A DNA stretch of 64,000 nucleotides from a virus (IMGVR_UViG_3300042484_002423), one strand, 5' to 3'; shown: positions 12,248 through 47,242, numbered from the stretch's first letter. Notes: generated by a model not told the origin, from the sequence alone. Numbers and translations: made by a program.

Positions 12248-15200
12248 ATGGCAACAACAACAAGACAAACAGCAATATTCGGTGTTGAAGACTGGAAACA
12301 GATCTATCAAACTTATCGCGAAGCCGACTTTCAAAGTTACGACTTTGAAACTCTTCGTAAAAGTTTTGTAGATTATTTGCGTTTGTATTACCCCGAAACA
12401 TTCAATGACTACATTGAATCAAGCGAATTTATTGCTTTACTGGACGTCATTGCGTTCATGGGACAAGCTTTATCTTTCCGTACTGATCTTAACACCCGTG
12501 AAAACTATATTGACACAGCAGAACGTCGAGATAGTGTAACACGACTTGCAAACCTTGTCAGCTATACAGCCAAGCGCAACACAGCAGCTGAAGGATTCCT
12601 CAAAGTATTCTCTGTAACAACTACAGAAAACGTTTATGATTATCAAGGAGTCAACCTCAGTAACGTTACAGTTGACTGGGCTGATCCTACAAATCCAGAT
12701 TGGCAAGAGCAATTTACAGCCATTATTAATTCTAGCCTGGTAGATACTCAACGTGTGGGTCGCCCCGGAAACCGTCAAACCATACTGGGTGTTCGCACTG
12801 ATGAATACGCTGTTAATCTGGTACCTGGCTTCTTGCCCGTGGTCCCATATACTGCCACAGTTGATGGTGTAAACATGCCTTTTGAAGCAGTAACATCTAC
12901 TTCACAAGGCGAAAACTATGTTTACGAGCCTAGCCCAAGACCCAATCAACCGTTTAATATTCTGTTTCGTAACGACAGTCTTGGATTCCAGTCGTCAAAT
13001 ACCGGTTACTTTTTCTTGTTCAAGCAAGGTGTATTGCAAAACCAAGACTTCAACCTGGCAGAACGCATTGCCAACCGCACAGTAAACGTCAACATTGAGG
13101 GCGTCAACAACACAGATCGCTGGCTGTTCCAGCTAGATGATGTTGGCAACATCAATCGAGAGTGGCAATACACTGAAAACATTTACGAAGCTGGTGCTGA
13201 ACAACTGGGCACTGATCTGCGACCCATTTACACAGTTACAAGTCGCACAAACGATCAAATCACCATGGTGTTTGGTGACGGCGTGTTCTCAGAAATTCCT
13301 GTGGGTACATACCGTGCATATGTTCGTGCATCAAACGGTTTGCAGTACATTATCAACCCCGAGGAGATGCAGGCTGTAAGCATTCCTATCAGTTATATCA
13401 GTCGTCAAGGCAACTTGGAGACCATGACTTTTGTGTGCGGCATCACCCAGCCAGTTAGCAATTCACAAAGCCGCGAAACCATTGATGCCATCAAGCAACG
13501 TGCCCCGGCTCGTTACTACACTCAGAATCGCATGGTCAACGGTGAAGACTATAATCTTTTCCCTTACACACAATACAACAGCATTGTCAAGAGCAAGGCC
13601 ATTAACCGTAGCAGCATTGGTACCAGTCGCTATCTTGACCTTGTGGACAACACTGGAAAATATTCCAGCACCAACACATTTGGCAGTGATGGTGGACTGT
13701 GGAGAGAAAACATACTGCCAACCATCTTGTTCTCATGGGCCACACGAAATGAAATTGCTGACGTAGTTACAAATCAAGTACAGCCCAAGTTAACTGAAAG
13801 TACAATGCAGCAGTTTTATTACGATAACTTTCCTCGTCAAACTGTTGACACTGGAGCAACTGCTGGTACAACCTGGAACCAAAGCACAACGCTTGCAAAC
13901 CAAACAACTGGCTACTTTAAAAATGCACTAGGAACTCCAATCCCTGTGGGAAACACAACATCAACAGTGTTCAAATACGTTGCAGTAAGTAGCTTGATCA
14001 AATTTGTTGCTCCAACAGGATACTATTTTGATCGAAACAATAGACTGCAAATTGGCACAGCAACTCGTGCTGACGAAAAAACAATTATCTGGGCAAGCCC
14101 CCAAGAGATCATTGGCAACGGAAACAATCAAGGTTTGGGCAACTTGACCTCAGGAGCCGGTCCAGTAACTCTCAACAACTTTGTGCCCACTGGCGCCATT
14201 GTTGACACCATCATTCCGCTGTTTGTTACAGACTTACCACTGAGTCTTGAGCAGGCCATGGCTGAACAGATTTTGTTGTATCGCAACTTTGGCATTGGCT
14301 ACGACAATGACGGAGCCATCACCGGCACACCGTATACCTGGTACCTGATCAACAGCACCAGCCTGGATGTAAATGCTCCTTTTGCTATTGTTCCTGGAAT
14401 ATCAGGACAGAACACTGGCACTGGTGAAGATGCCAGCTGGCTTGTGCAGTTTACTACTGAAAATCAAAGTTACACCATCACACTACGAGGCCTGGCCTAC
14501 AACTTTGGATCAGTGTTACAAACACGATTCTTCTACTATGACGGCGGCCAAGTGTATGACAGTCGTACTGGCACAGTGATACGCGACTTTATCAATATCT
14601 TGGCAGTGAACACACAACCAGATTCAACAGAACCTCTTCCAGGTGATATTCCAGTAACCATTACAGGACAGCCTGTTGAGAGCGACGGATATGTTGACGA
14701 CTTCCAGGTACTTGTTGGTTTCCGTGACAGCGACAACGACGGCGTTCCTGACGACCCAGACTTCTTTGACGAAGTGGTCGCTCCTGATGTCAACTCAAAT
14801 CAGAAGCTGATATTTTTGCAACAGACTGTGGACTTTGATAACTTGCAGCGTTACTTGTTGGTTGAGCAAGGTCGTGTAATATCTGATTATGCCACCTTTG
14901 ATGACATTGAACTGGCAAAATTTGAATGGAGTCCTGGGCAAGTGTTCTACGCTTACAGTGAAGAAGCGTTTTATGAACTAAGCATTAGTACCACTGGTGT
15001 CAGAACAATAGTGTCAGTAAGTGGCTGGATTGCCAGAACAGGCCGACAAGATTTGTACTATCAATATCGTCACAACAGCACACTGACTAACCGAATAGAT
15101 CCAGGAACAACAAACATTATTGATTTGTATGTGGTCACACAGGCCTACTACACCGCTTATCAAAACTGGATTCGTGATACCACAAACACTGTGCCTGAGC

Positions 15201-15685
15201 CAGCACAACCCACAATTGATGAGTTAAGTACAGCATATCAAGGACTGCAAGACTACAAAATGTTGAGTGACAACATTATTATTAATTCAGTTAACTTCAA
15301 ACCCTTGTTTGGAGAAAAAGCAGCCACTGAACTAAGAGCCACAATCAAGGTTATTAGAGCCAGTAACAGCACTGCATCTGTGAGTGAAATTAAATCATCA
15401 GTTGTAGCAGCCACGAACACTTATTTTAGCATTGACAAATGGAACTTTGGAGACACATTCTATTTCTCTGAGCTTGCAGCATATTTGCATCGCGAGCTTG
15501 GTACAATTATTTCTAGCGTGGTCTTGGTACCACTGAACACGCAAAAGTATTTTGGCGATTTGTACGAAGTACGTAGTCAACCCAATGAAATTTTTGTTAA
15601 CGGTGCAACAATCAACAATATTGAAGTGATTGAAGCATTGACCAGTACCAATTTGCGTACTGCCCCAGGTAGTGGAGTTATTTGA
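12248..15685 (+). CDS. Baseplate wedge protein, gp6/gpJ-like by position (1145 aa).
   Basis: The ORF is long and ATG-initiated with an AGAGG RBS. It immediately follows the gp25/gpW-like gene, as in the P2/Mu/T4 baseplate order. Confidence 0.45.
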   Translation: MATTTRQTAIFGVEDWKQIYQTYREADFQSYDFETLRKSFVDYLRLYYPETFNDYIESSEFIALLDVIAFMGQALSFRTDLNTRENYIDTAERRDSVTRLANLVSYTAKRNTAAEGFLKVFSVTTTENVYDYQGVNLSNVTVDWADPTNPDWQEQFTAIINSSLVDTQRVGRPGNRQTILGVRTDEYAVNLVPGFLPVVPYTATVDGVNMPFEAVTSTSQGENYVYEPSPRPNQPFNILFRNDSLGFQSSNTGYFFLFKQGVLQNQDFNLAERIANRTVNVNIEGVNNTDRWLFQLDDVGNINREWQYTENIYEAGAEQLGTDLRPIYTVTSRTNDQITMVFGDGVFSEIPVGTYRAYVRASNGLQYIINPEEMQAVSIPISYISRQGNLETMTFVCGITQPVSNSQSRETIDAIKQRAPARYYTQNRMVNGEDYNLFPYTQYNSIVKSKAINRSSIGTSRYLDLVDNTGKYSSTNTFGSDGGLWRENILPTILFSWATRNEIADVVTNQVQPKLTESTMQQFYYDNFPRQTVDTGATAGTTWNQSTTLANQTTGYFKNALGTPIPVGNTTSTVFKYVAVSSLIKFVAPTGYYFDRNNRLQIGTATRADEKTIIWASPQEIIGNGNNQGLGNLTSGAGPVTLNNFVPTGAIVDTIIPLFVTDLPLSLEQAMAEQILLYRNFGIGYDNDGAITGTPYTWYLINSTSLDVNAPFAIVPGISGQNTGTGEDASWLVQFTTENQSYTITLRGLAYNFGSVLQTRFFYYDGGQVYDSRTGTVIRDFINILAVNTQPDSTEPLPGDIPVTITGQPVESDGYVDDFQVLVGFRDSDNDGVPDDPDFFDEVVAPDVNSNQKLIFLQQTVDFDNLQRYLLVEQGRVISDYATFDDIELAKFEWSPGQVFYAYSEEAFYELSISTTGVRTIVSVSGWIARTGRQDLYYQYRHNSTLTNRIDPGTTNIIDLYVVTQAYYTAYQNWIRDTTNTVPEPAQPTIDELSTAYQGLQDYKMLSDNIIINSVNFKPLFGEKAATELRATIKVIRASNSTASVSEIKSSVVAATNTYFSIDKWNFGDTFYFSELAAYLHRELGTIISSVVLVPLNTQKYFGDLYEVRSQPNEIFVNGATINNIEVIEALTSTNLRTAPGSGVI

Positions 15686-18600: not shown

Positions 18601-21600
18601 GACATCAGTTCAGGATCAGTTAGAGAGTATGATAGTCGTAGTACTTTTGAAAAGTTGTTGGGATGGCAAACAGCCGCAGTTGACAGTCAAATATATCAAC
18701 AATTCAAGTTTACCTATTCAGGAGAAAATCTCAAACTTGATGTTGCAGTAAAAGATCAGGCCAGCATTGATGTACCAGTCATCAAAATTTATGTTGGAAC
18801 ACAGTTCCAACAACAGCAAAATTATACCTATTCTGTTGGTTCAAATAGTACGGTAATTACATTTGGATCAGATGTAGTAATTCCTCCAGGCGACATCATT
18901 GAAGTATTGGCCTTGAGTGACGAAACAAGTAGAGTAGGATTCTATCAAGTACCAATCAACCTTGAAAGCAACCCACTCAATGCTAACTCACCAAGATTTA
19001 CCCTTGGAACGATTCGCACTCATTATCAAAGCATTTGTGAGAACTTGACAGCACTTAGCGGTCCCATCAACGGTGCTAACAATTTACGAGATCTTGGAAA
19101 TGTAGTTCCTTATGGCTTGGTGATTCTGCAACAGAGCGCACCATTGACTCTGGCTGGATATTTCTTGCGCAGCAAAGACTACAACATTTTTGATTCAATT
19201 CGATACAACAGTCGCGAATATATCAAATACAAAGCTCAGTTAATGGATGCTGTGATAAAGCAAAACATTGGGTTTCAAACAACCGGGCAAATTTTAGATA
19301 CTGCAATTCAAGATGTGACCCTGGGCAAAGTTGACACACAGCCATTCTACTGGAGTGACATGTTGCCACAGGGAATTACAACCTATAGCAACACCTACAC
19401 AGTTAGTTTTATTACAACCAACATATTTGACACTGTACAAGTATACAACTACGAATCAGCAAACTATCTTGGATTACTGGTTTACTTGAATGAAGAACTA
19501 CTCACACGTGGGGTTGACTACGAAGTTGCAATTGACGGTCCTCGAGTAACTATTTTGACCACTCTTGTAGTGGGAGATAAAATTACCATCAATGAATACT
19601 CAACAACATATGGCAGTTTTGTTCCCAATACTCCTACAAAACTAGGACTATACCCTGCTTGGCAACCTAAAATTGTTGAACAAGAATCAAGTAATGGACT
19701 TGTTCAAGCCATCATTGGACACGACGGCAGTGTAACCAAGCTATTTGGAGACCTCCGTGATTCAGTGTTGTTAGAGTTTGAAACAAGAATTTACAACAAC
19801 CTCAAACTTGACGACAATCCTGTACCATTAACAGTGTATGATGTGCTGCCAGGCCAATTCCGAGACACTGGATACGCATTTAGCGAAATCAGCTCAATCC
19901 TGGGTACAGATTTGTTGAGCTACTGTGGCTGGAACAAAATTGATTACAAGTCACAAGATTTTAACTCAACCAACGAGTTTACTTGGAACTATAGTTCGTC
20001 ACAGAACAAACTCAACAATGAAAACTTGTTGGGCGCTTGGCGAGGAATTTATCGTTACTTCTATGATACTCAGCAACCAAGTTTGACTCCATGGGAGATG
20101 CTGGGATTCAGCATAGAGCCCACCTGGTGGCAAGATCGTTACGGACCAGCACCATACACGTCAGACAACCTGGTGTTATGGGACGACCTAGAAGCCGGCT
20201 ATGTTGCAGACCCAGTTGTGCCATATTACTTGCCAGAATTTGCAAGACCCGGACTAACAACAGTGTTGCCAACAGGCACCCAAGGCGAATTAGTGAGCCC
20301 GCTAAATTCAGTAGTTGGCGGATTTGATAACTTACAAATTCAAAAATCATGGGCCGTAGGCGATGGTGGACCCGTTGAAGCTTCTTGGTGGAACAGCTCA
20401 GGCTATGCTTTTGCAGTGATGCAGGTGTTGGCCGTTACTCGACCAGCAAAGTTTTTTGCATTGTTTGCAGACCGAGACCTGTATCGTTACAACAACGAGT
20501 ATCAACAATATCTATACAACAACCGATATAGACTGGATGCCAATGGCATTGAAGTATACGGTAACGGAGTCAGCAAAGCCAGTTATATAAATTGGATCGT
20601 TGACTACAACAGAATCACTGGGATTGACTCAACCAACACGCTATCTGCTGATCTTAAAAACTTAGATGTGCGGTTGTGCTACCGCATGGCCAGTTTCAGT
20701 GACAAACAGTACATCAAGTTGTACACAGAAAAGTCCAGTCCCAACTCAACAAACACTGCGCTGTTGATTCCAGACGAAAGTTACGACTTGATATTGTACA
20801 AGAACCAAATTTTTGATCGTATTACCTACAGTTCAGTAGCAATTCAAAAAACAGCAAGTGGAGGATATGCTGTGTTTGGTTACGGTACTACCCAGCCATA
20901 TTTTAATATTGTTGCCAGCAAGTCTGTGGGTCGTTTACAAACTTACAGTTCAGGCGGAGTTACAATAAAAGTACCAACGTTTTATACTGACAATATTGTT
21001 CAAGTTCCGTATGGGTTTGTGTTTGAAAGTGTAACTAGTGTTGCAGACTTTTTGCTGAGCTACGGAAAATACCTTGATAAACAAGGGCTGAGTTTTACCA
21101 ACGTTGCAAATGGTTATGTGCTTGACTGGCCTCGCATGGTCAATGAGTTCCTGTACTGGAGCCAACAGGGCTGGAGTGACGATGCAATTATTAATTTGAA
21201 TCCCTTGGCCGATGGATTAACCATTACCAAGCTGTTGTCTGTGGTTGATAACATACGAGCTCAAACAACTGAGAACTCAGTGCTTGATCAAAACAGTCGA
21301 GAATTCCCAGCTCGCAATCTAAACATTGTACGAGTCGGAAATACCTTTGCACTTCAGTCACTGAATGATCAATCAATAAGTTTTGTTGATTTAAACTTTA
21401 CAAATTATGAACACATTATTGTTTTAAACAATCAAAGTGTTTTTGGTGACTTAATTTATGATCCAACAACCGGCGCACGCCAGAGCCGACTCAATCTCAT
21501 AGCATTGACCAGTGATGATTGGGACGGAACTGTTAACGCACCAGGTTTTATCTTGAATCAAGACAACGTTCAAGAATGGACTGGTCTACGCACCTACAGC

Positions 21601-24600
21601 AAAGGTGAAATTGTCAAATACAAAAATGTGTATTGGAGTGCGCTAAAGATTGTTCAACCTGGTGCTACATTCAATTTCAACGACTGGGCACAAAGTGACT
21701 ACAATCAAATTGAACTTGGCTTGTTACCCAACATTGCCAACAAAGCAGATCAACTGGTAACCACATACGACATCAACTCAGCCAACATTGAGACTGACAC
21801 TGACCTATTGAGTTATGGCTTGATTGGATTCCGTCCTCGTCAGTATCTGGCTGCATTGAACCTAAGTGATGTTAGCCAAGTCAACGTGTATCGACAGTTT
21901 TTGGGCAACAAGGGCACAATTCTCAGTGCTGAATTGTTCAAGGGTGCAAACTTTGGCAAAGAAGCTGCTGACTATGATGTTTATGAAAACTGGGCAGTAC
22001 AACGTGCAGTATATGGTGCCAATGCCAACAGAAGTTTCTTTGAACTACGATTAAATCGTGCGCTGTTGAATGCTAACCCAAGCTTGATTCAAGTGGTGTA
22101 CCCACAGCAGACTAGCCAGGCTGATCAAGCTATATTGCTCAGTAATGTTTGGAGACAAAGTTATAAACTTACCAGCACAGATATTCTGCCAACAACCACA
22201 GAGCTGCCAACTGACATTGGACTTCCAACCGCTGGTTATGTGAGCTTGAATGATGTTGATCTCACAGTGTTCAATATCAACGACACAGCAAGTCTAGACG
22301 AAAATCTTGACAGTATCAAAGTTGGAACAAGTATCTGGGTTGCCAAAATCAACGACTATGACTGGAACATTTATCGAGCTGAGTCGGTCCCTGGTATCAT
22401 TGAACACGTTTGTGATAACTTAGATGGCACCAGCCGTGTGATCTTTAACAAACAGCACGGCTTATCTGCTGGTGACAAACTAATTATTAAATTCTTTGAC
22501 ACTGAAGTCAATGGTGTTTACACAGTTCTTAGTGTGGTAAATCTTAACACAGTGAACATTAGATTTAGATTTACTGGTGACCGTGCAGTTGCAAATGGCC
22601 AAGGACTTGGATTTACACTGCAAACCATGCGTGTTGCACAAGCTAGCGATGTGTTGAATTTGCCTTATGCCAATACGCTTGTGCCTGGAGCCAAGGTATG
22701 GGTTGACAATGATAGCAATGGTCTTTGGGAAGTACTTGAAAAACAAGAAGTATTCTCAAGCAATACCGTGCTGTCTCCCAAACTATTGGACAAAGACGAG
22801 CAATATGGATCAAGTATTGCACAAGCGCGAAATAGATTAGCAGTGTTTGTTGGCTCACCAAGATACAACTTTGGCTCAGGTATTGCCAAAGGTGCGCTTT
22901 ATGTGTACGTTAAAAATTCTGAAGGCAATTACACACCAGTTAGTCCCTTGGGCGAAGATGATGCTATCTTGACCTTGGATAGCACTGGAGTTCGCGGCTA
23001 CGGTAATGCAGTGGCGTTTGGTGACCAAACTTGGGCAGTTGCAGGGGCAAGTGCAAGTTTAGGAACAGGCAGCCTGCCCAATGTTGGCTACGTCAGCGTG
23101 ATTTATCGTGACCCGGCACTGGGACAGCCTGGTGTTATCCCTTATGCTCAATGGCAACTATTGACCCCGCACTCATCTGGAGATCGTGCACTGGCTGGTG
23201 AGTTTGGTTATGCAGTTACCATGAGTCAAGACGAGCGTTGGATGTATGTAGGTGCTCCGGGCATCAACAAAGTTTATGCTTATGGTCGTGTGGACTATCA
23301 AGATCAATTTGTTCGCACACGTGGCAATGGTGTAACAACACAAGTGTACATTACAAATACAATTCAAATTGATCAAGCCACACAGCTAAAAGTCATTGTG
23401 GACAATCGTGTGTTGACCCTTGGCGTTGACTACACCGTACACTCTCAGAGTGGTGTATTTGATTACGTTGAATTTACAACTGCGCCTGCTGTTGATGTAT
23501 TGATTGATATTCAACGAATCTATGTGCAACCATTTAGCTCAGTAACAAACACAATTTCACTCAACGAGAACTTGTTTACTGCTGACAACATTTATTCATT
23601 TTCAATTAGTGTTAACAACATTCTGCTACGACCATTCATTGATTACACTTTTGATGAAATCACCAAAGACGTAACTTTTACGCCTGCGTTAAGCAGCGCC
23701 AGTGTGTTGGTCAATTCTCAAAGTTATTTTGAATATGTTGCAACCCTTGATACCACCAGCCTTGGATTGATCTCAGGTGCTCGTTTTGGTCAGTCAGTAA
23801 GTTGCAGCACCGACGGGCGACAGGTCATGATTGGTGCTTCGTATCAAACTGTCACTGGCAAAGTTGAAGCTGGTGCAGTATATGTGTTTGATCGCAACGT
23901 GCAACGCTTTATCTACGGTACCGACGCCAGCAGCACCAGCTTTACCTTGCTTGGTACTGTGACTGCCCCAATGAGCGTGATTGTCAACAATGTGTTCTAT
24001 CTCAATCAAGATGCAGCAGCAGTTAATGCTACAAATACATTTGTGTGGGATGGAGCAAACACAGTAACAATCAATGGCAATTTGCAAATTGGTGATGTGG
24101 TCGAAATTGAAACCAATCAATTCCGATTAATACAAGCAATTCCGCAAAATCAAGTAGCGGAGTTTTCTAACTACGGTGCCGCAGTTGATCTTTGCAGTTA
24201 CAATTGCAGTCTTTACACTGGTGCGCCGCAGAGCAGCCTCCAGGCATACAAGACTGGAACAGTTGAACGTCGTGTGAATCAAAGCCGTGTGTATGGCACA
24301 ACCACAAGTTTAGCTGCCAACGCAACTTTGACCACTGGTAATACTATTAGAGTCAACAATCAAGACGTTGCGGTTCCTGGCGCTTGGAGCTCATTGTCAT
24401 CGTACAACAAAGATACTGTGGTTTACAACACCAGCGGCTCAGTCACAACAATTTACCGTGCTCTACAGCAGGTGTCACCAGGAATTGCAATTACAAACAC
24501 CTCCTACTGGAGCACAGTTTCTAGCACTACATCACTGGCACGAATTTATGTGCAAGCTCTAGCAGCACAAATTGTTGCGTCTGTGCCAAACGTGTTGGCC

Positions 24601-27600
24601 ACAGTTAATACCAATGGGTACCTTACTGTTTCTGTCAAGAACAACAATGCTGCTCCAGAATTTAACAAAGTGCAAGTAGCACCAGGCAGTGTCGGAACAG
24701 CATTTGACACCTTGAACTTTGTGACCTATGCATGGACACAAAACATTCAAAGTCCGTATCCTGTGGAGTTTGGCGGTTTTGGCTCAAGCCTTGAAATTGA
24801 CGACTCTGCGCTGAACCTGGTTGTAGGTGCACCCAAGGGAACATTGTATATTGTACAAGAGTTTGACGACGGTACAACAATTTTTGATGTTGGTGCTACA
24901 GAATTTTTTGCAATAATTGTGCAAAGCGGGGCAGTTTACACATTTGACTATTTGCCAAGTGCTACACAGAGCATTACAAATCCAGGAAAGTTTGTTTTTG
25001 GATCACAAATATCATCTAATGATTTATACTCTTACGATTTGTTTGGAACTGCGGTAAGTTATAATTCAGGAGTGCTCATGGTTGGTTCACCAGGAACTGA
25101 TATTGGTGACTCAAGTTCATCTAACTTTGGTGGAGTTTTTGTTTACGAAAACCCAAGCCGTCAACCAGCTTGGACTATAGTAACAAAACAACAGCCAGTA
25201 GTAGATATCAGACTGTTGAATTCTGTATTCCTGTATGATCGAATCACCAGCGCAACTACTGAGTTTTTGGATTTTATCAATCCGTTGCAAGGTAAAATTC
25301 TAGGTGCTGCCCGACAAAACATTGACTACATTGGTGCTGTAGATCCTGCAGCCTACAACGCTGGTCCAGTGAATATTCGCGGCACTACCTGGAGAGAAAA
25401 TCACATTGGCGAAATTTGGTGGGACACCAGCACTGCAAGATTTATTGATCCTAACCAAGACAACATAACATATGCAAGTCGACGTTGGAGCCAGCTATTC
25501 ACAGGTTCAAGTGTAGATGTGTATCAATGGATTGCCAGTCCGCTACCACCAGCACTGTACAACAGCGAAGGTGTGCCAAAAGACACTGTCAGTTACACTA
25601 TTAATTCAAGACTGTCTAAAGATGGTACTATTGTAACTGAATACTATTTCTGGGTACGTGGTATCACAGTTACTGCAACCAAGACTGGTAAGACTTTGCC
25701 TGCAAGCACCGTGGCAAATTATATTGAAAGCCCACGTGCAAGTGGCATTCCTTATATTGCACCAATCAATGCCAACACAATTGCAATATACAATGCCAAC
25801 GAGTATATTGAAGCAGAAGACACAATTATCAACATTGAATTTGATCGTGAACTCACAACCAGCAATGTTCACGTTGAATACGAATTAATTGCACAGGATC
25901 GCGCTGATGGCTTCTTGAGCACAAACTTGTATAGAAAACTTCAAGACAGTTTCTGTGGAGTTGACAGTTTTGGTAATTTGGTTCCTGACGTCAACTTAAA
26001 TCCAGCTGAACGCTATGGCGTACAGTTCCGTCCACGTCAGTCAATGTTTGTGGATCGTTTTGCTGCATTAAAGAACTATCTCACAAGAGCCAATGCTGTA
26101 CTAGCACAGTTCCCTGTTAGTGAGAACCGCTCGTTTAATCTGTTGAATTCTGCTGAACCTGAACCAAGTGCAAGTTCTAGTAAATGGAATCTTCGAGTTG
26201 CAAACTTAGAAATCTTGGGATTCCAGAATATCAATTCAGTGCCGTTGGGATATCGTTATCTTGTTGTAACAGACAGCAACAACCGAGGCTTATGGACAAT
26301 CTACACTGTAGAAGCAAGCGACAGTGTTGTTGGACAACGTGAGCTAGTTCTCACCAGCGTTCAAGGTTACAACACACAGGATTACTGGAGTTACATCAAC
26401 TGGTATCGCCCAGGATACAATTCAAGCACTCGCGTAATTACTGAAGTCAACACATTCAGCAGTCTTAGCACACTATCTGTGCCTGTGGGCAGCAGCGTCA
26501 AGGTCACAGCCAACGCACAAGGTAAATGGGAAATTTATTTGTTGACTGAGCTTGCCTGGGAAAGAGTTGGCTTACAGGATGGAACTATTGCATTCAGTGC
26601 TGAGTTGTGGGACTATGCACTGGGCCGCTTTGGCTTTGACGTTGAGGTATTTGACGCACAGTACTTTGATCAAGAGCCTGTGATTGAAACTAGAAAAATC
26701 ATCCAAGCTATCAATGAAGAACTGTTTGTTGATGACCTAGCAATTGAACGCAATCGTGCCTTGGTACTGATGTTTAACTTTGTGTTGAGCGAATTCTCTG
26801 CGCCTGAGTGGCTTGTAAAAACCAGCTTGATCGACGTTGATCATAGAATTCGTGAGCTAATACCGTACCAAAACTATATTCGTGACAATCAGGAATTTGT
26901 TGAACAGTACATCAAAGAAGTCAAACCATATCACGTTCAAATTCGCGAGTTCAATCTTAAATACAGCGGCTTTGATAGATATCTTGGTGATGCCACTGAC
27001 TTTGACGTTCCTGCATACTACGACACAAGTCTAGAGATACCGCAATATATCAGTCCCATACTATTGCCATATACTGCTGGCACGGCTTTCAACAGCGAAA
27101 GCAATGTTCTAAGCAATACTCCAGCATCAAGTACACTATGGCAGACCTGGCCCTACAGTCAGTGGTACTCTAACTACCTGTTGGAGCTAGTAACCATTGA
27201 AGTAATTGACGGCGGTGTTGGATACACTGAGGCTCCTAGTATTGAAGTATCAGGGTATGCTGCTGTTCCAGCACAGGCTGTTGCAGTGCTCAATAGTTTT
27301 GGACAGATTACTGCAATTAACATAACTTCTCCAGGGTCTGGATACACTGCTGCACCAGAAATTATTTTCAACGGCGGCAACGGCACAGGTGTTCGCGCAT
27401 ATCCTATAATGAGTGGCCAAGGCCTGGGCCAGAACTACAATTCAAGCACAGTGCCTGAAACTGTCAACAACTACACACTGGCGCGAAGCTTCCGTACAGT
27501 GATCAAGTATGATCGATTCCAGTATCAGAGCAGTGTTGTAGATTGGGAATCAAATGCAACTTACCAAGACGGCACTTTGGTGCGTTATGATGATCGCGTA

Positions 27601-30432
27601 TGGCAAGCTGCAAGCCCAGATTCAACTGCGGTTTCAAGTCCAACATTTGACCTTGAAGACTGGACTCTGGTCAACGCAGGAACCTACAACGGCGGCCTAG
27701 GATTATCTGGTGTTGATCGTACCATGGGTCTTTATGTGCCTGGTGTTAATCAGCCCGGACTTGAATTACCACTATTGATTGACGGCGTAGAATACCCCGG
27801 GGTTCAAGTTTATGGCGATTACTTCTTGGGAAATCCTGCAAACACCGACGTCACGTATGAGAGTGAATTTACTGACGTTGCCCTTGGCGACAGATTCACA
27901 GACATCAATGTTGTAGGCGGCGAATTTATTGGCCCTTATGAAGGACATGCACCTGAAGAGTTAGTGAATGGTGCTGAATTTGATACCTTGGACATGCGTG
28001 TGTACACACGACCAGGCGCTGATTGGAATCGTGACGGTCACGGATTCCAAATTGGAACAGTTCGTTATACATATGAACCTGCAATCTCACCAACATACAG
28101 TTGGGCTGGAGTGGTGGATCATCCGGTGCAAGTCTTGGTCAGTAACTTAACAACTGGACTTGATCTTCATCTAGCAACAGATTTTACCATTGACTGGGAC
28201 AATCAAAACATAACCATATTAACCGGAGTAACCACTGGACAAATTATCAACATCAGTGTTTACGAACTTGGCGGCGGCAGTCAGTTGTACCGAGCCAACT
28301 ACATTGGAGCCGAAGTTGGTCAGACCGTTACTATCCCGGTAAACAACGCTGAAATTTACAGCATTGCAGTGTTTGTAAACGGTGAAGCAACAACTGGTAT
28401 AACCTGGGAAGCATATACTGAAAATCAGCCTTGGAACATTTTGCAAACTTGGCAAAAGTTTGACATTGTTACTCAAACTGGCCAGTACTATCGAGCCTTG
28501 CAAGAAGTTCCCCCAAGAACCGCAATAACCAATGTTTTGTACTGGTTGGCATTTGTGCCCACATTAGAAACACAAGTAGACTTTGGTACCACATATGGCG
28601 TAGATGATGGCATTGCTCTTGTGGCATTTGGCTATACGACTCCACAGCAGTATGAATGGAGTACCCCGCAGGCACAGTACGTGGTTGCAGATCCGCAGCT
28701 GGTAAACACCAAGACTATTCAATTAACCAACAGCATGCAAGGTACAAACCCTGCAAACTTGGTAGTAACACAAAACGGTCGACGTTTACGACCTGCCGAC
28801 GGCATTGAATGGTTTGGCGACGATTCCAGTGTGAGTTTTGGACTGCCACAGCGTGGTGGATACAGTCAAAGCATTATCAATGCCCCAATTGATGTACAAG
28901 TGTGGGTGGACAATGAGCTACAACAACAAAGCTTTGGTATAACCACTGGTGTCTACAGTGTAACAAACTGGACTGGATCAAATACACCCGGGCGCCAAGT
29001 GGTGTTTAACACTCCGCCAGCAGCAGGCGCACGTATTCTGATATCAGTTGATACTCAAGCAGGGTACACATTGTCAGGCAGTCAGTTGCAAATTATTGTA
29101 CCAATTAACCTCAATGACGAAATTACAATAACTTCTTGGAATGACACTGCACAGCAAAACTTGTTGACCTTGGTGTTCCAGGGCCCTGTGGTTACTGGAA
29201 CTGTAGTGCAACAGGGATTTAGCGAAGTTGACTATGATCCGCTGTGGGTCAATGCGGTTACCACTGGTACAATACCTGCAACTGCTCTTGCAACAGGTGA
29301 AGTATACACCATTGTTTTGGCTGGAACCACAGACTTTACTCTATATGGCGCTGCAAACAACACTCCAGGCACAGTGTTTACCAGCACTGCGACCACTGGC
29401 CCCGGCGCTGGCACAGGTACTGTTACAGGTAACATATATTCACGCAGTGGAGCCACTAATGCGTTCAATGGTGATCCAGGTGCATATGATTACTCTCAAG
29501 GTGTGGTTAATATCAACAATGATTTCTATTTGCAGCGAGAAGATATTGTGGCCAGCAGATTGTGGGTCACGCTTGATGGCGATAGACTATTTGAAGGTAT
29601 TGACTATACCGTGCAAGATGGGTATTTGATCTTGGCTTCGGGCGCAATCAGTTCTTTGCAAGTTCTTGCAGTTACTGAGTGCACAAGTTCTGTGGTACCA
29701 GAAGCCATGGCATTCCGCATTTTCCAAGACATGCGTGGTGTGCAGGCAACTTATAGAATTACCGTAGCGTCAACTACTGCCTTGAGTCAACCACTTGGTG
29801 CACTTGATAATGTGATTTATTTTACAAATGCAAGTGCACTAACTGAACCCAATTTGGAAATTGGAGCTTTTGGTGTAATAACCATTGACGGCGAACGAAT
29901 CATGTATCGTGAAATTGATCTAGCAACCAATTCTGTCAGCAGCTTGTTAAGAGGCACAGCAGGCACAGCAGCCGCAAGCCATGCTGTTGGTGCAATTGTG
30001 TATGACATAGGCCGTGGCAATTTGTTGGCACAACCATACCAAGATTATGTGGTCAAAGATACCAGTATTGGTGACGGCACAACCAGCGTGTTCTATGCCC
30101 CAAGCATTTCTATTGGACAGGATCAAGACAGCAGCAGCGAACGTCAAGCAATAGAAGTTTATGTGGGTGGAGTGAGACAATATGCCTACAGCGACACAAC
30201 AGCTGAAAGTCAATATCGATGGTTTGTAACTGATTTTGATCCTGTTGCAATTGATTTTGTGGTAGATTCTGAGGTTTATCCACCACTTGCTGCGCCTCCA
30301 GCAGGGCAAGAAGTTACTATTTTGGTGCGCCGAGGTGTAACTTGGTATGCCCCGGGTATAAACGAGCCCAGCGACGGGGTTGCATTGCAAGATACCAACA
30401 CAGTTCCTGCAAGGTTCTTGAGAGGGCTGTAA
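15682..30432 (+). CDS. Giant (4916 aa) tail fibre / baseplate protein containing a seven-blade FG-GAP-type beta-propeller and other repeat domains.
   Basis: The ORF is uninterrupted over 14.7 kb with an ATG start overlapping the upstream stop (ATGA). It lies in the fibre position after the gpJ-like gene. FG-GAP-like blades occur at about 22801-25160. Tandem GxGYTxAP motifs occur at about 27220-27400. Confidence 0.8.
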   Translation: MMATVRSVDFLPEIFQTDANKQFLRATLDQLVQEPKYQKTQGFIGRTVGPGVNPNDRYVVEPNATRANYQLEPGVVSLEPGTNKIKDTITYPGINDAVAYQGGNSARPDRLYSSEYYSWDPFVDFDTFVNFSQYFWVPDGPPVVDVSSTGIPVTDNFTVTRQNGVYAFSGVSGTNPIIELVRGGSYTFQVAQNNKETVNYRVRNNSINAYIVDNQSNPTLTLVRGNTYVFNLTLNGVFPFWIKTQPTTGIGDVYSSGVTRNGSTSGLVTFTVPQDAPDTLYYASQNQINMQGRFDIVDGVPGTGPGFWIQAAPGINGTLPATPNISSRDVYGVENNGEDLGTIVFNVPYKTAQNFYYNLPSISQVDLITGLNFDQINNMPVAEFIANYGGIDGISNLEGRTLVFAKTSQETEAGGWSRTTLFDPLAPGAANNGLIGSYDTVPYSQETEIPLVDRYQVWQISYVNNGGFDYIYLSKVLTVDPNTKFNISYGTVYSNTQWYKDATGVFKQIPLLSAVQDTLYYQDGTDPEIFGTIKLLEQTTSSTLFINDIIGKKTYTSPNGVTFTNGLKVRFTGSVDPASYGSGQSTITYTQTETGTNYISSLSANDLYVGQEIVFASPTLGGIEPGTTYFVRSIAANGLKFTISEVLNGTAVILQTGTGTSTATAISNKEYYVNGVGSAIELLPVTDFVTPESYVTGTDPTDLDYLTISRASKDLNPWTRSNRWFHIDVINAAAAYNNTTAVLDNTYRAKRPIIQFRPGLRLWNMGTSGKQPVDIIDFEETDAFTNIEGSTGYTTDGYTLVEGSRVIFAADEDVAVQNKIFVVSFITPDSTPPIGPPYTGQPIIHLTLAADGEVFTDQNTVVLYGNTTAGNTYWYNGTAWAQAQQKTLVQQAPLYNVYDPTGISFGDSTKYQSTTFAGSKLFSYAVGDTSIIDPILQFPLQYLNINNVGDIVFLNNLYNDTFLYVVDNVSVTSDISSGSVREYDSRSTFEKLLGWQTAAVDSQIYQQFKFTYSGENLKLDVAVKDQASIDVPVIKIYVGTQFQQQQNYTYSVGSNSTVITFGSDVVIPPGDIIEVLALSDETSRVGFYQVPINLESNPLNANSPRFTLGTIRTHYQSICENLTALSGPINGANNLRDLGNVVPYGLVILQQSAPLTLAGYFLRSKDYNIFDSIRYNSREYIKYKAQLMDAVIKQNIGFQTTGQILDTAIQDVTLGKVDTQPFYWSDMLPQGITTYSNTYTVSFITTNIFDTVQVYNYESANYLGLLVYLNEELLTRGVDYEVAIDGPRVTILTTLVVGDKITINEYSTTYGSFVPNTPTKLGLYPAWQPKIVEQESSNGLVQAIIGHDGSVTKLFGDLRDSVLLEFETRIYNNLKLDDNPVPLTVYDVLPGQFRDTGYAFSEISSILGTDLLSYCGWNKIDYKSQDFNSTNEFTWNYSSSQNKLNNENLLGAWRGIYRYFYDTQQPSLTPWEMLGFSIEPTWWQDRYGPAPYTSDNLVLWDDLEAGYVADPVVPYYLPEFARPGLTTVLPTGTQGELVSPLNSVVGGFDNLQIQKSWAVGDGGPVEASWWNSSGYAFAVMQVLAVTRPAKFFALFADRDLYRYNNEYQQYLYNNRYRLDANGIEVYGNGVSKASYINWIVDYNRITGIDSTNTLSADLKNLDVRLCYRMASFSDKQYIKLYTEKSSPNSTNTALLIPDESYDLILYKNQIFDRITYSSVAIQKTASGGYAVFGYGTTQPYFNIVASKSVGRLQTYSSGGVTIKVPTFYTDNIVQVPYGFVFESVTSVADFLLSYGKYLDKQGLSFTNVANGYVLDWPRMVNEFLYWSQQGWSDDAIINLNPLADGLTITKLLSVVDNIRAQTTENSVLDQNSREFPARNLNIVRVGNTFALQSLNDQSISFVDLNFTNYEHIIVLNNQSVFGDLIYDPTTGARQSRLNLIALTSDDWDGTVNAPGFILNQDNVQEWTGLRTYSKGEIVKYKNVYWSALKIVQPGATFNFNDWAQSDYNQIELGLLPNIANKADQLVTTYDINSANIETDTDLLSYGLIGFRPRQYLAALNLSDVSQVNVYRQFLGNKGTILSAELFKGANFGKEAADYDVYENWAVQRAVYGANANRSFFELRLNRALLNANPSLIQVVYPQQTSQADQAILLSNVWRQSYKLTSTDILPTTTELPTDIGLPTAGYVSLNDVDLTVFNINDTASLDENLDSIKVGTSIWVAKINDYDWNIYRAESVPGIIEHVCDNLDGTSRVIFNKQHGLSAGDKLIIKFFDTEVNGVYTVLSVVNLNTVNIRFRFTGDRAVANGQGLGFTLQTMRVAQASDVLNLPYANTLVPGAKVWVDNDSNGLWEVLEKQEVFSSNTVLSPKLLDKDEQYGSSIAQARNRLAVFVGSPRYNFGSGIAKGALYVYVKNSEGNYTPVSPLGEDDAILTLDSTGVRGYGNAVAFGDQTWAVAGASASLGTGSLPNVGYVSVIYRDPALGQPGVIPYAQWQLLTPHSSGDRALAGEFGYAVTMSQDERWMYVGAPGINKVYAYGRVDYQDQFVRTRGNGVTTQVYITNTIQIDQATQLKVIVDNRVLTLGVDYTVHSQSGVFDYVEFTTAPAVDVLIDIQRIYVQPFSSVTNTISLNENLFTADNIYSFSISVNNILLRPFIDYTFDEITKDVTFTPALSSASVLVNSQSYFEYVATLDTTSLGLISGARFGQSVSCSTDGRQVMIGASYQTVTGKVEAGAVYVFDRNVQRFIYGTDASSTSFTLLGTVTAPMSVIVNNVFYLNQDAAAVNATNTFVWDGANTVTINGNLQIGDVVEIETNQFRLIQAIPQNQVAEFSNYGAAVDLCSYNCSLYTGAPQSSLQAYKTGTVERRVNQSRVYGTTTSLAANATLTTGNTIRVNNQDVAVPGAWSSLSSYNKDTVVYNTSGSVTTIYRALQQVSPGIAITNTSYWSTVSSTTSLARIYVQALAAQIVASVPNVLATVNTNGYLTVSVKNNNAAPEFNKVQVAPGSVGTAFDTLNFVTYAWTQNIQSPYPVEFGGFGSSLEIDDSALNLVVGAPKGTLYIVQEFDDGTTIFDVGATEFFAIIVQSGAVYTFDYLPSATQSITNPGKFVFGSQISSNDLYSYDLFGTAVSYNSGVLMVGSPGTDIGDSSSSNFGGVFVYENPSRQPAWTIVTKQQPVVDIRLLNSVFLYDRITSATTEFLDFINPLQGKILGAARQNIDYIGAVDPAAYNAGPVNIRGTTWRENHIGEIWWDTSTARFIDPNQDNITYASRRWSQLFTGSSVDVYQWIASPLPPALYNSEGVPKDTVSYTINSRLSKDGTIVTEYYFWVRGITVTATKTGKTLPASTVANYIESPRASGIPYIAPINANTIAIYNANEYIEAEDTIINIEFDRELTTSNVHVEYELIAQDRADGFLSTNLYRKLQDSFCGVDSFGNLVPDVNLNPAERYGVQFRPRQSMFVDRFAALKNYLTRANAVLAQFPVSENRSFNLLNSAEPEPSASSSKWNLRVANLEILGFQNINSVPLGYRYLVVTDSNNRGLWTIYTVEASDSVVGQRELVLTSVQGYNTQDYWSYINWYRPGYNSSTRVITEVNTFSSLSTLSVPVGSSVKVTANAQGKWEIYLLTELAWERVGLQDGTIAFSAELWDYALGRFGFDVEVFDAQYFDQEPVIETRKIIQAINEELFVDDLAIERNRALVLMFNFVLSEFSAPEWLVKTSLIDVDHRIRELIPYQNYIRDNQEFVEQYIKEVKPYHVQIREFNLKYSGFDRYLGDATDFDVPAYYDTSLEIPQYISPILLPYTAGTAFNSESNVLSNTPASSTLWQTWPYSQWYSNYLLELVTIEVIDGGVGYTEAPSIEVSGYAAVPAQAVAVLNSFGQITAINITSPGSGYTAAPEIIFNGGNGTGVRAYPIMSGQGLGQNYNSSTVPETVNNYTLARSFRTVIKYDRFQYQSSVVDWESNATYQDGTLVRYDDRVWQAASPDSTAVSSPTFDLEDWTLVNAGTYNGGLGLSGVDRTMGLYVPGVNQPGLELPLLIDGVEYPGVQVYGDYFLGNPANTDVTYESEFTDVALGDRFTDINVVGGEFIGPYEGHAPEELVNGAEFDTLDMRVYTRPGADWNRDGHGFQIGTVRYTYEPAISPTYSWAGVVDHPVQVLVSNLTTGLDLHLATDFTIDWDNQNITILTGVTTGQIINISVYELGGGSQLYRANYIGAEVGQTVTIPVNNAEIYSIAVFVNGEATTGITWEAYTENQPWNILQTWQKFDIVTQTGQYYRALQEVPPRTAITNVLYWLAFVPTLETQVDFGTTYGVDDGIALVAFGYTTPQQYEWSTPQAQYVVADPQLVNTKTIQLTNSMQGTNPANLVVTQNGRRLRPADGIEWFGDDSSVSFGLPQRGGYSQSIINAPIDVQVWVDNELQQQSFGITTGVYSVTNWTGSNTPGRQVVFNTPPAAGARILISVDTQAGYTLSGSQLQIIVPINLNDEITITSWNDTAQQNLLTLVFQGPVVTGTVVQQGFSEVDYDPLWVNAVTTGTIPATALATGEVYTIVLAGTTDFTLYGAANNTPGTVFTSTATTGPGAGTGTVTGNIYSRSGATNAFNGDPGAYDYSQGVVNINNDFYLQREDIVASRLWVTLDGDRLFEGIDYTVQDGYLILASGAISSLQVLAVTECTSSVVPEAMAFRIFQDMRGVQATYRITVASTTALSQPLGALDNVIYFTNASALTEPNLEIGAFGVITIDGERIMYREIDLATNSVSSLLRGTAGTAAASHAVGAIVYDIGRGNLLAQPYQDYVVKDTSIGDGTTSVFYAPSISIGQDQDSSSERQAIEVYVGGVRQYAYSDTTAESQYRWFVTDFDPVAIDFVVDSEVYPPLAAPPAGQEVTILVRRGVTWYAPGINEPSDGVALQDTNTVPARFLRGL
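22801..25160 (+). other. Seven FG-GAP / integrin-alpha-like beta-propeller blades within the giant ORF, with a ~150-aa insertion between blades 3 and 4.
   Basis: Blades identified by eye include YGSSIAQARNRLAVFVGSP...GALYVYV, AFGDQTWAVAGAS...GYVSVIY, FGYAVTMSQDERWMYVGAPGINKVYAY, FGQSVSCSTDGRQVMIGAS...GAVYVFD, YGAAVDLCSYNCSLYTGAP, FGSSLEIDDSALNLVVGAPKGTLYIV and FGTAVSYNSGVLMVGSPG...GGVFVYE. Confidence 0.5.
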
Positions 30433-36274: not shown

Positions 36275-37184
36275 CATTGCAGATCTAGACTGCATTTACT
36301 TGAGTTATGACGAACCACAAAAAGAAGAACATTGGGCAAAGATTCGCAATATGGTGCCTTGGGCCAAAAGGGTGGATGGCGTTAAGGGCAGCGATGCTGC
36401 TCACAAAGCGGCGGCACAGGCCAGTGACAGTGATAGATTCATTCTCATTGATGGCGACAATATCCCCAACCCAGCGTTTTTTAATCAAACGCTTGTTCTT
36501 CCTACAGAAGAATATGAGAACGCTGTGTTCCGTTGGCGTGCTAGAAATAAAATCAATGGATTGATGTATGGCAATGGTGGGTTAAGTTCGTGGACCAAGG
36601 AGTTTGTTGCTGCTATGCAAACACACGAAGCCACAGACGGCCGCACCGAAACACAAGTTGAGTTTTGCTTTGATCCGCTTTACTGGGCCATGCATGATTG
36701 TTACAGTACCACATACCCCAATGGATCTGCGTTCCAGGCCTGGCGAGCGGGTTTTAGAGAAGGTGTCAAGATGTGTTTGCAGCGTGGTCGCAAACCCACT
36801 ATTGACGAATTCAAGAATCAAGTGCTGCGCAACATAGACAACTTGACCATATGGCACAACATTGGCACTGATGCAGAGTATGGTGAGTGGGCTATTGCTG
36901 GTGCACGTCAAGGCACCTACATGACCATGCTTACTGGCTGGGATCATACTCTGGTACAGAACTTTGATGCGCTTGAAGATCTATGGCTCACAGTAAAAGA
37001 CAGTGAACCCCGATTGCTCAGTAACCAACTAGGCCCTGAACTGGGCACACAGCTGGACTTGCCCATGGCCATTTTGGAAGCAGAACAATCAGCTTTCTTC
37101 AAGCACCACTATCGCAGCAACTGGCACAATCAAGGCGTCATGGTTAGAGAAATTGATGTAATTCGCAAAACAGAAGGTTGGTAA
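36261..37184 (+). CDS. Hypothetical protein (307 aa) carrying an ILIDGDN DxD-like motif. It may be a transferase.
   Basis: ATG start with tight coupling to neighbours. Confidence 0.45.
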
Positions 37185-38563
37185 TGAGCACTGGTGAACA
37201 AAGCCATTTCATGAACAGTGCTGAACAAATGAAGCAGGACCTGGGTCCTGCTTTATGTCTAGCCAAATGGAAACAAGTTAGCCTGCACCTGCCCACAGGA
37301 CTCAACAACTCGTGCTATCATCCGCCCTTGCATAGAATTCCCATAGAAGAAATTGGTCGCAGCCCAGGTGCACTGCACAATACAGAACACAAAAAACAGC
37401 AAAGAAAAATGATGCTGGCAGGCGAACGCCCTGCAGAATGTCAGTACTGCTGGAACATGGAAGACCTAGGTGAGCTCAGTGATAGACACTATCGTTCTGG
37501 CGAGCCGTGGGCAGCAGCAGACTTTGAGCAGATCAAGAACTCTACAGGACTAGAAGATGATGTCATTCCCAGTTACGTTGAAGTTAACTTTAACAATGCT
37601 TGTAACCTTAAGTGCAGTTATTGCAGTCCCCAGTTTAGCTCTAGCTGGGCCGACGAAGCTAACCGTGATGGCGCTTATGCTACTTCCACACCACATAATG
37701 CTCCTGAACACTTTACAGGGCCTAGACGTGTTATTCCCGCTAGGGAAAACAATCCCTATGTTGAAGCATTTTGGGCGTGGTGGCCCACGCTGTATCCTCA
37801 GCTGAAACATTTCCGCATGACTGGTGGAGAACCACTCATGGATCGAAACACTTACAGAGTGTTTGACTATGTGTTGGCCCTGCCCAAGCCAGACTTGCAC
37901 TTAAACGTAACATCAAACTTCAGTGTAGAAGATGCCTTGTTTGAAAAGTATCTGGACTATGTAAAACGGCTGTGCAACACACAAATTGAGCACTTTATGC
38001 AGTATGTGAGCCTGGACTCGGGCCGCGGATTCCAAGCTGAATACATACGCCACGGCATGGACTCACAACGTGTGGTCACCAATGTAAACCGTTATTTGCA
38101 CGAAGCACCCAGCCGCAACAGTTTGACGTTTATTATAACCATGAACAACTTGTCAGTGTCAGGATTCCGTGAGTACATGGAATGGATCCTGCACCTGCGC
38201 CAAAGCTACAGCAAAACATATCAACGTGTATGGTTTGATACTCCGGTACTGCGACAACCTGCATGGCAAAGCCTGCAAATCCTGCCTGAAAGTTATGCTG
38301 CAAAACTGGAACAGTGTGCTGACTGGATGGACTCACAGGTTACCACAGGCTTGCATGGATTTAAAGATTACGAAGTGCAGCGCCTGCGCAGAGATATTGC
38401 CTGGATGCGTGAAGGGCAGAAACAAGACAACACCGTGGCCAAAGCTGACTTCCATCGTTTCTTTGGTGAACATGATCGTCGAAGAGGCACAGACTTTTTA
38501 CGCACATTTCCTGAAATGAAGTCGTGGTGGGAGGAGTGTGCATATCATGCTAGGCAAGCATAA
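37184..38563 (+). CDS. Radical SAM enzyme, paralog 1 of 5. It has an N-terminal 4-Cys domain, a CNLKCSYC cluster motif and a GGEPLM motif.
   Basis: CX3CX2C with the aromatic residue before the third Cys. A GGEPL SAM-binding motif is present. N-terminal motifs C..KW....LP.G...SCYHPP.H and GERPAEC.YCW are shared with paralog 2. The C-terminal motif F..F...D.RRG.DF is shared. The track start is TTG at 37178. The ATG at 37184 overlaps the upstream TAA. Confidence 0.7.
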   Translation: MSTGEQSHFMNSAEQMKQDLGPALCLAKWKQVSLHLPTGLNNSCYHPPLHRIPIEEIGRSPGALHNTEHKKQQRKMMLAGERPAECQYCWNMEDLGELSDRHYRSGEPWAAADFEQIKNSTGLEDDVIPSYVEVNFNNACNLKCSYCSPQFSSSWADEANRDGAYATSTPHNAPEHFTGPRRVIPARENNPYVEAFWAWWPTLYPQLKHFRMTGGEPLMDRNTYRVFDYVLALPKPDLHLNVTSNFSVEDALFEKYLDYVKRLCNTQIEHFMQYVSLDSGRGFQAEYIRHGMDSQRVVTNVNRYLHEAPSRNSLTFIITMNNLSVSGFREYMEWILHLRQSYSKTYQRVWFDTPVLRQPAWQSLQILPESYAAKLEQCADWMDSQVTTGLHGFKDYEVQRLRRDIAWMREGQKQDNTVAKADFHRFFGEHDRRRGTDFLRTFPEMKSWWEECAYHARQA

Positions 38564-47170: not shown

Positions 47171-47242
47171 CACTGGAGCAAGTGCAAGATCAGGACTATG
47201 AGATCAGTGCAGATTTTACCCTTAAATTTAGAAAGACATAAC

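Follow-up and report, generated by a model that had tools for sequence, protein, structure and literature searches.

A predicted seven-bladed FG-GAP propeller with three inserts in a giant protein of a phage baseplate module

The viral DNA stretch IMGVR_UViG_3300042484_002423 (64,000 nucleotides, referred to as the window) stems from an uncultured jumbo phage and contains, within its baseplate module, a giant open reading frame (ORF) that encodes a beta-propeller of the FG-GAP_2 family. According to an AlphaFold2 model, residues ~2362-3167 of the giant protein form a closed seven-bladed propeller that is structurally closest to the propellers of integrin alpha chains. The assignment of these residues to the FG-GAP_2 fold and family is secure. 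Three consecutive blades carry inserts, an arrangement within a baseplate protein of 4,915 residues for which no counterpart exists among the relatives examined. An earlier note, made from the sequence alone, had placed FG-GAP repeats at 22801-25160, corresponding to residues 2374-3160 when the TTG of the giant ORF is counted as residue 1, as is done throughout. The repeats are real, and all strings quoted for them (VFVGSP...GALYVYV, WMYVGAPGINKVYAY, VMIGAS...GAVYVFD, NLVVGAPKGTLYIV and LMVGSPG...GGVFVYE) were found.

Several lines of evidence support the repeats. A regular expression for the FG...GAP core revealed exactly seven matches in the 4,916 residues, all of them within the segment (start residues 2375, 2440, 2508, 2702, 2831, 3033 and 3121). 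When the same expression, which was composed after inspecting the data, was applied to 2,000 residue shuffles, it matched 0.12 times on average and three times at most. The proposed search with hidden Markov models (HMMs) was successful for FG-GAP_2 (PF14312), which scored 38.2 bits on the segment (E 1.7e-9) and 29.2 bits on the whole protein at a gathering cut-off of 23, while FG-GAP (PF01839) had no match in the giant protein. Relatives reached 39-61 bits for FG-GAP_2. Taken singly, blades 4, 7 and 3 scored 28.9, 18.6 and 14.1 bits, respectively, while blades 1, 2, 5 and 6 were not detected. Profile comparisons with hhalign, based on 11-18 homologues per blade, linked blades 1, 3, 4, 6 and 7 with probabilities of up to 97%, the highest value being obtained for blade 4 against blade 6. 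Blade 5 showed links of 53-86%, except to blades 2 and 7. Since the links of blade 2 to the other blades are weak, this blade was assigned from its motif and the model. DNA-level repeats were not found in the region, the blades are therefore old, diverged repeats. Finally, a phmmer search in 1.84 billion representative proteins, for which blades 1-3 served as a contiguous query, yielded 177 matches at E <=1e-3 and reached FG-GAP_2 proteins with fn3 or PKD domains (E 5e-26 to 2e-12, ~29-34% identity), which themselves score 218-925 bits for PF14312.

The AlphaFold2 model, comprising residues 2354-3173 and predicted from a shallow alignment of 25 sequences, has a mean predicted local distance difference test value (pLDDT) of 81.9 and a predicted template modelling score (pTM) of 0.86. 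Structure prediction and HMM search had been named beforehand as checks, and a propeller model as well as a significant FG-GAP_2 score were obtained. Together with the match of the giant ORF to phrog_10938 ('virion structural protein', E 1.4e-293, residues 1044-1959), the model bears out the proposal of a seven-bladed propeller inside a giant virion protein. The best structural matches are integrin alpha propellers sharing the same FG-GAP seven-bladed fold, namely alpha-V (8vs6_A), the top Foldseek match (E 1.3e-7, template modelling score 0.62 normalised by target), alpha-M (7usm_A) and alpha-5 (4wjk_A). Partial Foldseek matches were obtained to the N-terminal region of CBA120 TSP4 (7rej_A, probability 1.0, 247 columns) and to the PhiM1 T7-like fibre complex. 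In the PDB, no significant sequence match was obtained for the alignment profile, insert A or the whole protein, and NCBIfam contained no match for the giant ORF. It is hardly conceivable that the similarity arose by chance or from low complexity in a beta-rich protein and that no real propeller exists. Four of the seven blades escape Pfam when taken singly, blade 2 is weakly linked and the model was predicted from a shallow alignment. But seven motif matches stand against 0.12 expected, the score exceeds the curated Pfam threshold in the window, and a relative exceeds it by more (61 bits), and blades 1-3 match canonical FG-GAP_2 proteins with E-values down to 5e-26. The Pfam score, the AlphaFold2 model, the integrin fold matches and the phmmer relatives effectively refute this explanation.

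Regarding the anatomy of the propeller (Table 1), the strand order of the model places inserts A, B and C each between strand 3 (GxVYVF) and the returning strand 4 of blades 3, 4 and 5, respectively. They comprise ~135-160 residues after repeat 3, ~60-85 after repeat 4 and ~145-165 after repeat 5. The earlier note had described a single insert of ~150 residues and compared it with the I-domain of integrins. An insert after repeat 3 does exist, but it is one of three, all of which are located in strand 3-4 hairpins. The comparison with the I-domain did not hold, as a match to VWA is missing, the inserts are all-beta or alpha+beta and nothing is inserted between blades 2 and 3, the place of the optional alpha-I (vWFA) domain in integrins. 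The halves of insert A match one another (hhalign 95%, E 3.6e-8), which makes the insert a tandemly duplicated beta module of ~70 residues; weak copies of this module recur elsewhere in the giant protein. Insert B, flanked by long strands at model residues 378-391 and 453-468 (DSSP), resembles this module weakly. The helix of insert C is located at model residues 596-614. Another excursion, a hairpin of ~30 residues with a conserved FDDGTTxFD, modelled with low confidence, is present in the 2-3 loop of blade 6. The four insert pieces and both flanks did not match any credible Pfam family at E up to 10.

There are further differences to the integrin propellers. Integrin alpha chains possess Ca2+-binding DxDxDGxxD loops in the 1-2 loops of blades 4/5-7, while the 1-2 loops of the window blades are only 2-5 residues long. 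The calcium loops that the earlier note had wished to see checked are absent, as D-x-[DN]-x-[DN]-G does not occur in any blade (residues 2362-3167). The only integrin-type D-x-D-x-[DN]-G-x-x-E motif of the region, DNDSNGLWE (residues 2342-2350, 22705-22731), lies outside the blades, ~20 residues upstream of the first modelled propeller strand, and is kept in homologues as WVDNNGSGLWEV. Perhaps it forms a metal site in the preceding domain. The 1-2 loop of blade 5 contains the sequence CSYNC (residues 2838-2842, 24193-24207), whose two cysteines (C-x-x-x-C) are largely conserved (loop identity 0.66) and may form a disulfide or a metal site. Integrin thigh, calf or other integrin-alpha domains were not matched in a Pfam scan of the whole protein at E up to 1. 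Moreover, integrin alpha pairs with a beta subunit, whereas the window propeller is part of a phage virion protein for which no partner is known and no search aimed at one was made.

Four short motifs resembling CBM5/12 (chitin-binding type 3) were recognized by eye in the giant protein ('Y.KG..V.Y....Y.AL..V.P........W'), the second of which falls inside insert C. Pfam detected only the third, and weakly (E 0.032). The giant proteins of the phages Atu_ph07 and PA5oct score 22.1 and 19.4 bits, respectively, for the chitin-binding domain, and one PA5oct-like record names the giant protein 'chitin-binding type-3 domain-containing'. A minus-strand ORF of 108 residues with a TTG start (23794-24120) lies wholly within the propeller-coding region. 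It was treated as spurious because it is located inside the conserved giant gene.

The designation of the protein as a fibre protein was not established. The giant gene follows a gp6-like wedge gene, an order also found for gp355 of PA5oct. The modelled part, residues 2354-3173, is globular. This upstream gene (ORF 12248-15685) matches the baseplate wedge families phrog_10646 (E 7e-280) and phrog_219, and its stop codon shares one base with the ATG of the giant ORF (TGATG overlap). ORF 8752-10269 matches PHROG families of gp5-like hub/lysozyme proteins, and downstream of the giant ORF proteins are encoded that resemble PA5oct gp357, gp359 and, more weakly, the gp10-like gp358. The order in PA5oct is hub, small wedge subunit, wedge protein (1,319 residues), gp355 (3,857 residues), gp357, gp10-like gp358 and gp359; the baseplate-module neighbours in the window match their PA5oct counterparts gene for gene. 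PA5oct gp355 is marked in its record as detected by electrospray ionisation tandem mass spectrometry (ESI-MS/MS). The giant gene sits between the gp6-like wedge gene and the position of the gp10-like gene, as a gp7-type gene does by position. Judged by gene order, the giant ORF occupies the T4 gp7 position of the baseplate module, a positional assignment. Its product would belong to the baseplate and occur several times in each virion.

The scaffold of the giant protein is shared with other jumbo phages. By tblastn, residues ~1007-1973 matched 91 jumbo-phage records with 23-28% identity, among them PA5oct-like phages, Atu_ph07, SCTP-2 and large E. coli phages of 350-380 kb. PA5oct gp355 and a 4,449-residue structural protein of Atu_ph07, both members of phrog_10938, share the scaffold in collinear blocks (25-37% identity), and their genes take the same place after the gp6-like wedge gene as in the window. 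High-scoring segment pairs of BLASTP at residues 847-2141 and 3165-3522 represent the shared scaffold and flank a lineage-specific cassette (residues 2142-3164) that holds the propeller. At the corresponding position PA5oct has 317 residues and Atu_ph07 ~1,530 unrelated residues, and FG-GAP repeats were not found in either giant protein. As both share the flanking scaffold without FG-GAP, the propeller is a clade-specific cassette in a conserved scaffold. The genome paper of Atu_ph07 mentions neither the giant protein nor FG-GAP.

Close homologues are rare; all of them are metagenomic and fall into 24 protein clusters, mostly fragments. The same propeller occurs on at least 18 IMG/VR contigs, which reach 349 kb in length. 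In 15 of 18 it is located at an ORF offset of ~2,240-2,415; ten of these giant ORFs are complete (4,383-5,027 residues), and the other five extend beyond the contig end. Of the remaining contigs, two have a shorter ORF and the third is truncated at its own start. Among the 150 representative proteins listed from the phmmer search, ~30 exceed 3,000 residues, with the match mostly at residue ~1,850-2,550. Two contigs (L008 and L014) show interrupted giant ORFs of 1,956 and 1,219 residues, respectively. On a 36-kb contig (L002, JGI sample 3300075516), blades 1-3 and insert A only are encoded by a stand-alone ORF of 492 residues (P0021, 10001-11479) among small ORFs, outside any giant gene. This could be due to a split gene, a rearrangement or misassembly.

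FG-GAP-like sequence was detected in 19 of 50,697 phage records, three of which match only a stretch of ~100 residues. A tblastn search with the segment and a megablast search with the whole ORF against the 50,697 records gave no match. FG-GAP_2 propellers were already known in a few phage structural proteins, e.g. in Synechococcus phage S-MbCM6. The 7,022-residue 'gp8 baseplate wedge protein' of this phage (AFD02696.1) has, like the window protein, embedded FG-GAP_2 repeats (134 bits), and its gene is located immediately upstream of gp10; related structural proteins exist in cyanomyoviruses (S-MbCM25, S-TIM5-like). However, the S-MbCM6 repeats are contiguous and adjoin lectin-like Laminin_G_3 domains, while those of the window carry inserts, and beyond small shared modules the two giant proteins have no homologous scaffold. 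Their propellers were probably acquired independently. Stand-alone FG-GAP proteins of large myoviruses, such as the 'FG-GAP repeat protein' of Vibrio phage nt-1 (ORF127), the Atu_ph07 'hemagglutinin' (A0A2L0UZX4) and A0A6J5S3H5 of an uncultured Caudovirales phage, differ from the embedded window propeller in being separate proteins of ~400 residues. The gene of nt-1 sits among non-structural genes. Matches in BFVD ('FG-GAP repeat [uncultured Caudovirales phage]', the Atu_ph07 'hemagglutinin' and an S-TIM5 virion protein) demonstrate that phage and giant-virus proteomes already include FG-GAP-type propellers, and a 2025 preprint treats FG-GAP proteins of marine myoviruses (10.1101/2025.10.05.680483). 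A description of an FG-GAP propeller in a phage baseplate protein was not found in the literature. The closest sequence relatives other than giant proteins are the FG-GAP_2 proteins with fn3 or PKD domains (P0030, P0044, P0052 and P0056). They belong to the same Pfam family and have architectures resembling those of extracellular adhesins, but unlike the window protein, they possess contiguous repeats without nested domains and are not virion proteins. For some of these proteins the encoding contigs measure 200-830 kb, a length that points to cellular genomes.

Within the clade, the parts of the propeller differ in conservation. Mean identities to the window are highest for the blade strands (0.67) and the 1-2 loops (0.66), lower for the 2-3 loops (0.51) and lowest for the 4-1 loops (0.43) and the inserts (0.41-0.46). 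Large, domain-scale indels are confined to inserts and loops. Insert A is an indel hotspot, since 12 of 14 relatives contain about 70-95 additional residues following residue 2619, and one relative contains 49 following residue 2589. Regarding insert C, three relatives have 66 additional residues following residue 2977, and residues 2902-2953 of the window are missing in most relatives (alignment gap in >=30%). A mini-module of ~45 residues ('YTIV.AGTTDFT.YGA...GTGT', hereafter GTTDFT) is present in insert A of three relatives (L007, L010 and L016; residue ~2626-2631), while in the window (within residues 4501-4600) and in another relative (L003, ~4800) it is found near the C-terminus. The mini-module seems to change its place among orthologous giant proteins. 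The pattern as a whole is consistent with an exposed, adaptable module.

On balance, we favour the reading that the propeller lies exposed at the baseplate and serves as a platform for adhesion or display, engaged in cell-surface binding. It would form a rigid platform presenting a variable face and interchangeable small beta-domains, including the CBM5/12-like mini-domain, to the cell envelope. By binding polysaccharide or protein it would contribute to adhesion or host recognition and assist or tune adsorption, without catalysis and without an integrin-type heterodimer. The function in binding a receptor or glycan that the earlier note had envisaged is plausible. This reading is preferred because of the replacement of the cassette between lineages, the variable putative top face and the modular inserts, and because the closest non-giant sequence relatives are adhesin-like and there are precedents in phages. 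Besides S-MbCM6, these are phiKZ gp131, whose C-terminal domain (PDB 4GBF) forms a propeller of seven blades on the periphery of the baseplate, and the receptor-binding protein Gp45 of phi11 with a five-bladed propeller platform; for both, receptor or carbohydrate binding was proposed (PMC4901313). They are beta-propellers on phage baseplates, as is suggested for the propeller of the window. FG-GAP proteins are also widely regarded as adhesion modules (PMC11467894; 10.1101/2025.10.05.680483).

On the other hand, a number of observations speak against an adhesion platform. The blade segments as a whole (mean identity 0.59) are about as conserved as the structural core, the whole protein showing 0.61. 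The most variable part of the protein is not the propeller but the region of residues ~4200-4600 near the C-terminus, a commoner place for a receptor-binding tip, with its maximum at residues 4501-4600 (29182-29481; identity 0.15, gapped in 67% of relatives on average). As loops are normally less conserved than strands, the face-specific pattern discriminates weakly, and the top and bottom loop faces were assigned from the known integrin topology and the strand order. A ligand-site motif was not identified in the propeller. The gp7-like role of the giant protein is based on synteny, because similarity to T4 gp7 was not detected, neither when T4 gp5-gp12 were searched with a profile built from 12 giant proteins (gp7, E 0.55) nor by BLASTP, which gave nothing. 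Last, the sequence SQDER in the 1-2 loop of blade 3 is invariant in 14 relatives, which suggests a fixed protein-protein contact.

Together with the high conservation of the blade cores and several 1-2 loops, the invariant SQDER speaks for a docking hub, the main but less likely alternative, in which the propeller and the small beta-modules bind phage proteins (side fibres, tailspikes, neighbouring wedges) and organise a branched baseplate periphery. Integrin alpha propellers are themselves protein-protein interfaces, and the window propeller is internal, ~1,750 residues away from the C-terminus. Insert A points in the same direction. Its modules in three relatives match the N-terminal, tail-docking domain of the T7 fibre (Phage_T7_tail) with 19-21 bits, below the Pfam cut-off of 25.2, and the insert A1 profile of the window aligns to residues 38-69 of T7 gp17 (independent E 2e-4) in a weak hmmsearch based on two sequences. 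This T7-fibre-like signal is a lead, in line with the partial Foldseek matches to TSP4 and the T7-like fibre complex; the Foldseek output, however, does not reveal which part of the model matched TSP4. Docking is also at odds with the distribution of variation, since conservation is lowest and indels are most frequent in the inserts, which fixed assembly interfaces would not usually show unless their partners vary with them, and with the lack of the cassette in PA5oct and Atu_ph07, which share the scaffold.

It is conceivable, but rather unlikely, that the propeller acts as a modular display scaffold for host recognition, in which the hairpins of three neighbouring blades serve as sockets for small binding domains swapped between phage lineages. 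The domains concerned would be the beta modules resembling the T7 fibre N-terminus, the CBM5/12-like mini-domain and the GTTDFT mini-module. If this is true, the host range of this clade of uncultured jumbo phages would be tuned by domain-level indels in an integrin-like baseplate head and not by a conventional C-terminal fibre tip. Even less probable is an enzymatic function, for instance as a polysaccharide lyase or hydrolase, that degrades capsule or cell-wall polymers, like tailspike endosialidases of the K1F type. Beta-propellers are common carbohydrate-active scaffolds, propeller endosialidases are known in phages (PMC4901313), and CBM5/12-like motifs are located nearby. However, the best structural matches, integrin alpha propellers, are non-enzymes, the sequence relatives with fn3 or PKD domains have typical adhesin-like architectures, and no enzyme family was matched in Pfam, NCBIfam or PHROGs. 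A conserved acidic or catalytic constellation was not identified either, the poorly modelled FDDGTTxFD being the only conserved acidic loop.

Outside the propeller, the giant protein contains a tandem 'GGxGYTxAP' small domain (27184-27444, residues 3835-3921) that matches PHROGs of baseplate hub/tail lysozyme and head closure Hc2 proteins (E ~2e-8) as well as repeated modules in the giant proteins of Atu_ph07 (residues 2536-2670) and S-MbCM6. This domain is apparently a decoration module of wide occurrence. Directly 3' of the baseplate module, a run of eight ORFs was identified, of which five match radical-SAM families and three remained without a match; a Nol/NodU-like carbamoyltransferase gene follows the run, and together they occupy 37178-48828 on the plus strand. 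A cluster of several radical-SAM genes is unusual for a phage.

Table 1. Coordinates of the giant ORF, its propeller and further features of the window
Feature	Coordinates	Strand	Residues	Remarks
Giant baseplate-module ORF	15682 (TTG)/15685 (ATG)-30432	+		4,915 residues counted from ATG
Lineage-specific cassette holding the propeller	22105-25173	+	2142-3164	Between two shared scaffold blocks
Predicted seven-bladed FG-GAP_2 propeller including inserts	22765-25182	+	2362-3167	
Blade 1	22795-22956	+	2372-2425	YGSSIAQ..AVFVGSP..GALYVYV; hhalign to blade 4 96%
Blade 2	22987-23175	+	2436-2498	YGNAVAF..WAVAGAS..GYVSVIYR; most diverged
Blade 3, strands 1-3	23191-23322	+	2504-2547	FGYAVTMSQDERWMYVGAPGINKVYAYGRV
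Insert A	23323-23724	+	2548-2681	Tandem pair of ~70-residue all-beta modules with 'DYT' motif
Blade 3 returning strand 4, then blade 4 strands 1-3	23725-23919	+	2682-2746	FGQSVSCSTDGRQVMIGAS..GAVYVFD
Insert B	23920-24096	+	2747-2805	Small all-beta module on long strand 3-4 hairpin of blade 4
Blade 4 returning strand 4, then blade 5 strands 1-3	24097-24291	+	2806-2870	YGAAVDLCSYNCSLYTGAP..GTVERRV
Insert C	24292-24726	+	2871-3015	Alpha+beta module, long helix
Sub-insert within insert C	24385-24540	+	2902-2953	CBM5/12-like motif seen by eye; pLDDT <50
Blade 5 returning strand 4, then blade 6	24727-24960	+	3016-3093	
Strand 4 of blade 6, linker and blade 7	24961-25182	+	3094-3167	FGTAVSYNSGVLMVGSPG..GGVFVYE
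CBM5/12-like motif 1	21595-21693		1972-2004	
CBM5/12-like motif 2	24403-24519		2908-2946	
CBM5/12-like motif 3	27562-27672		3961-3997	
CBM5/12-like motif 4	28450-28557		4257-4292	
Radical-SAM ORF	37178-38563	+		PHROG match
Radical-SAM ORF	39646-40980	+		PHROG match
Radical-SAM ORF	40977-42641	+		PHROG match
Radical-SAM ORF	42638-43849	+		PHROG match
Radical-SAM ORF	44842-46140	+		PHROG match
Nol/NodU-like carbamoyltransferase	47341-48828	+		phrog_1601, E 5e-89

FG-GAP is rare in sequenced phages, and it is therefore useful, though not paradigm-changing, to document that phage baseplate proteins have acquired it repeatedly and, as it seems, independently. Baseplate gene modules of jumbo phages encode conserved giant proteins of 3,000-7,000 residues, for which the records seen give only generic names such as 'virion structural protein'. 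The confidently modelled integrin-like FG-GAP propeller provides a concrete domain within such a protein. The giant protein is a conserved scaffold with a replaceable cassette, which holds the propeller here and other sequence in PA5oct and Atu_ph07.

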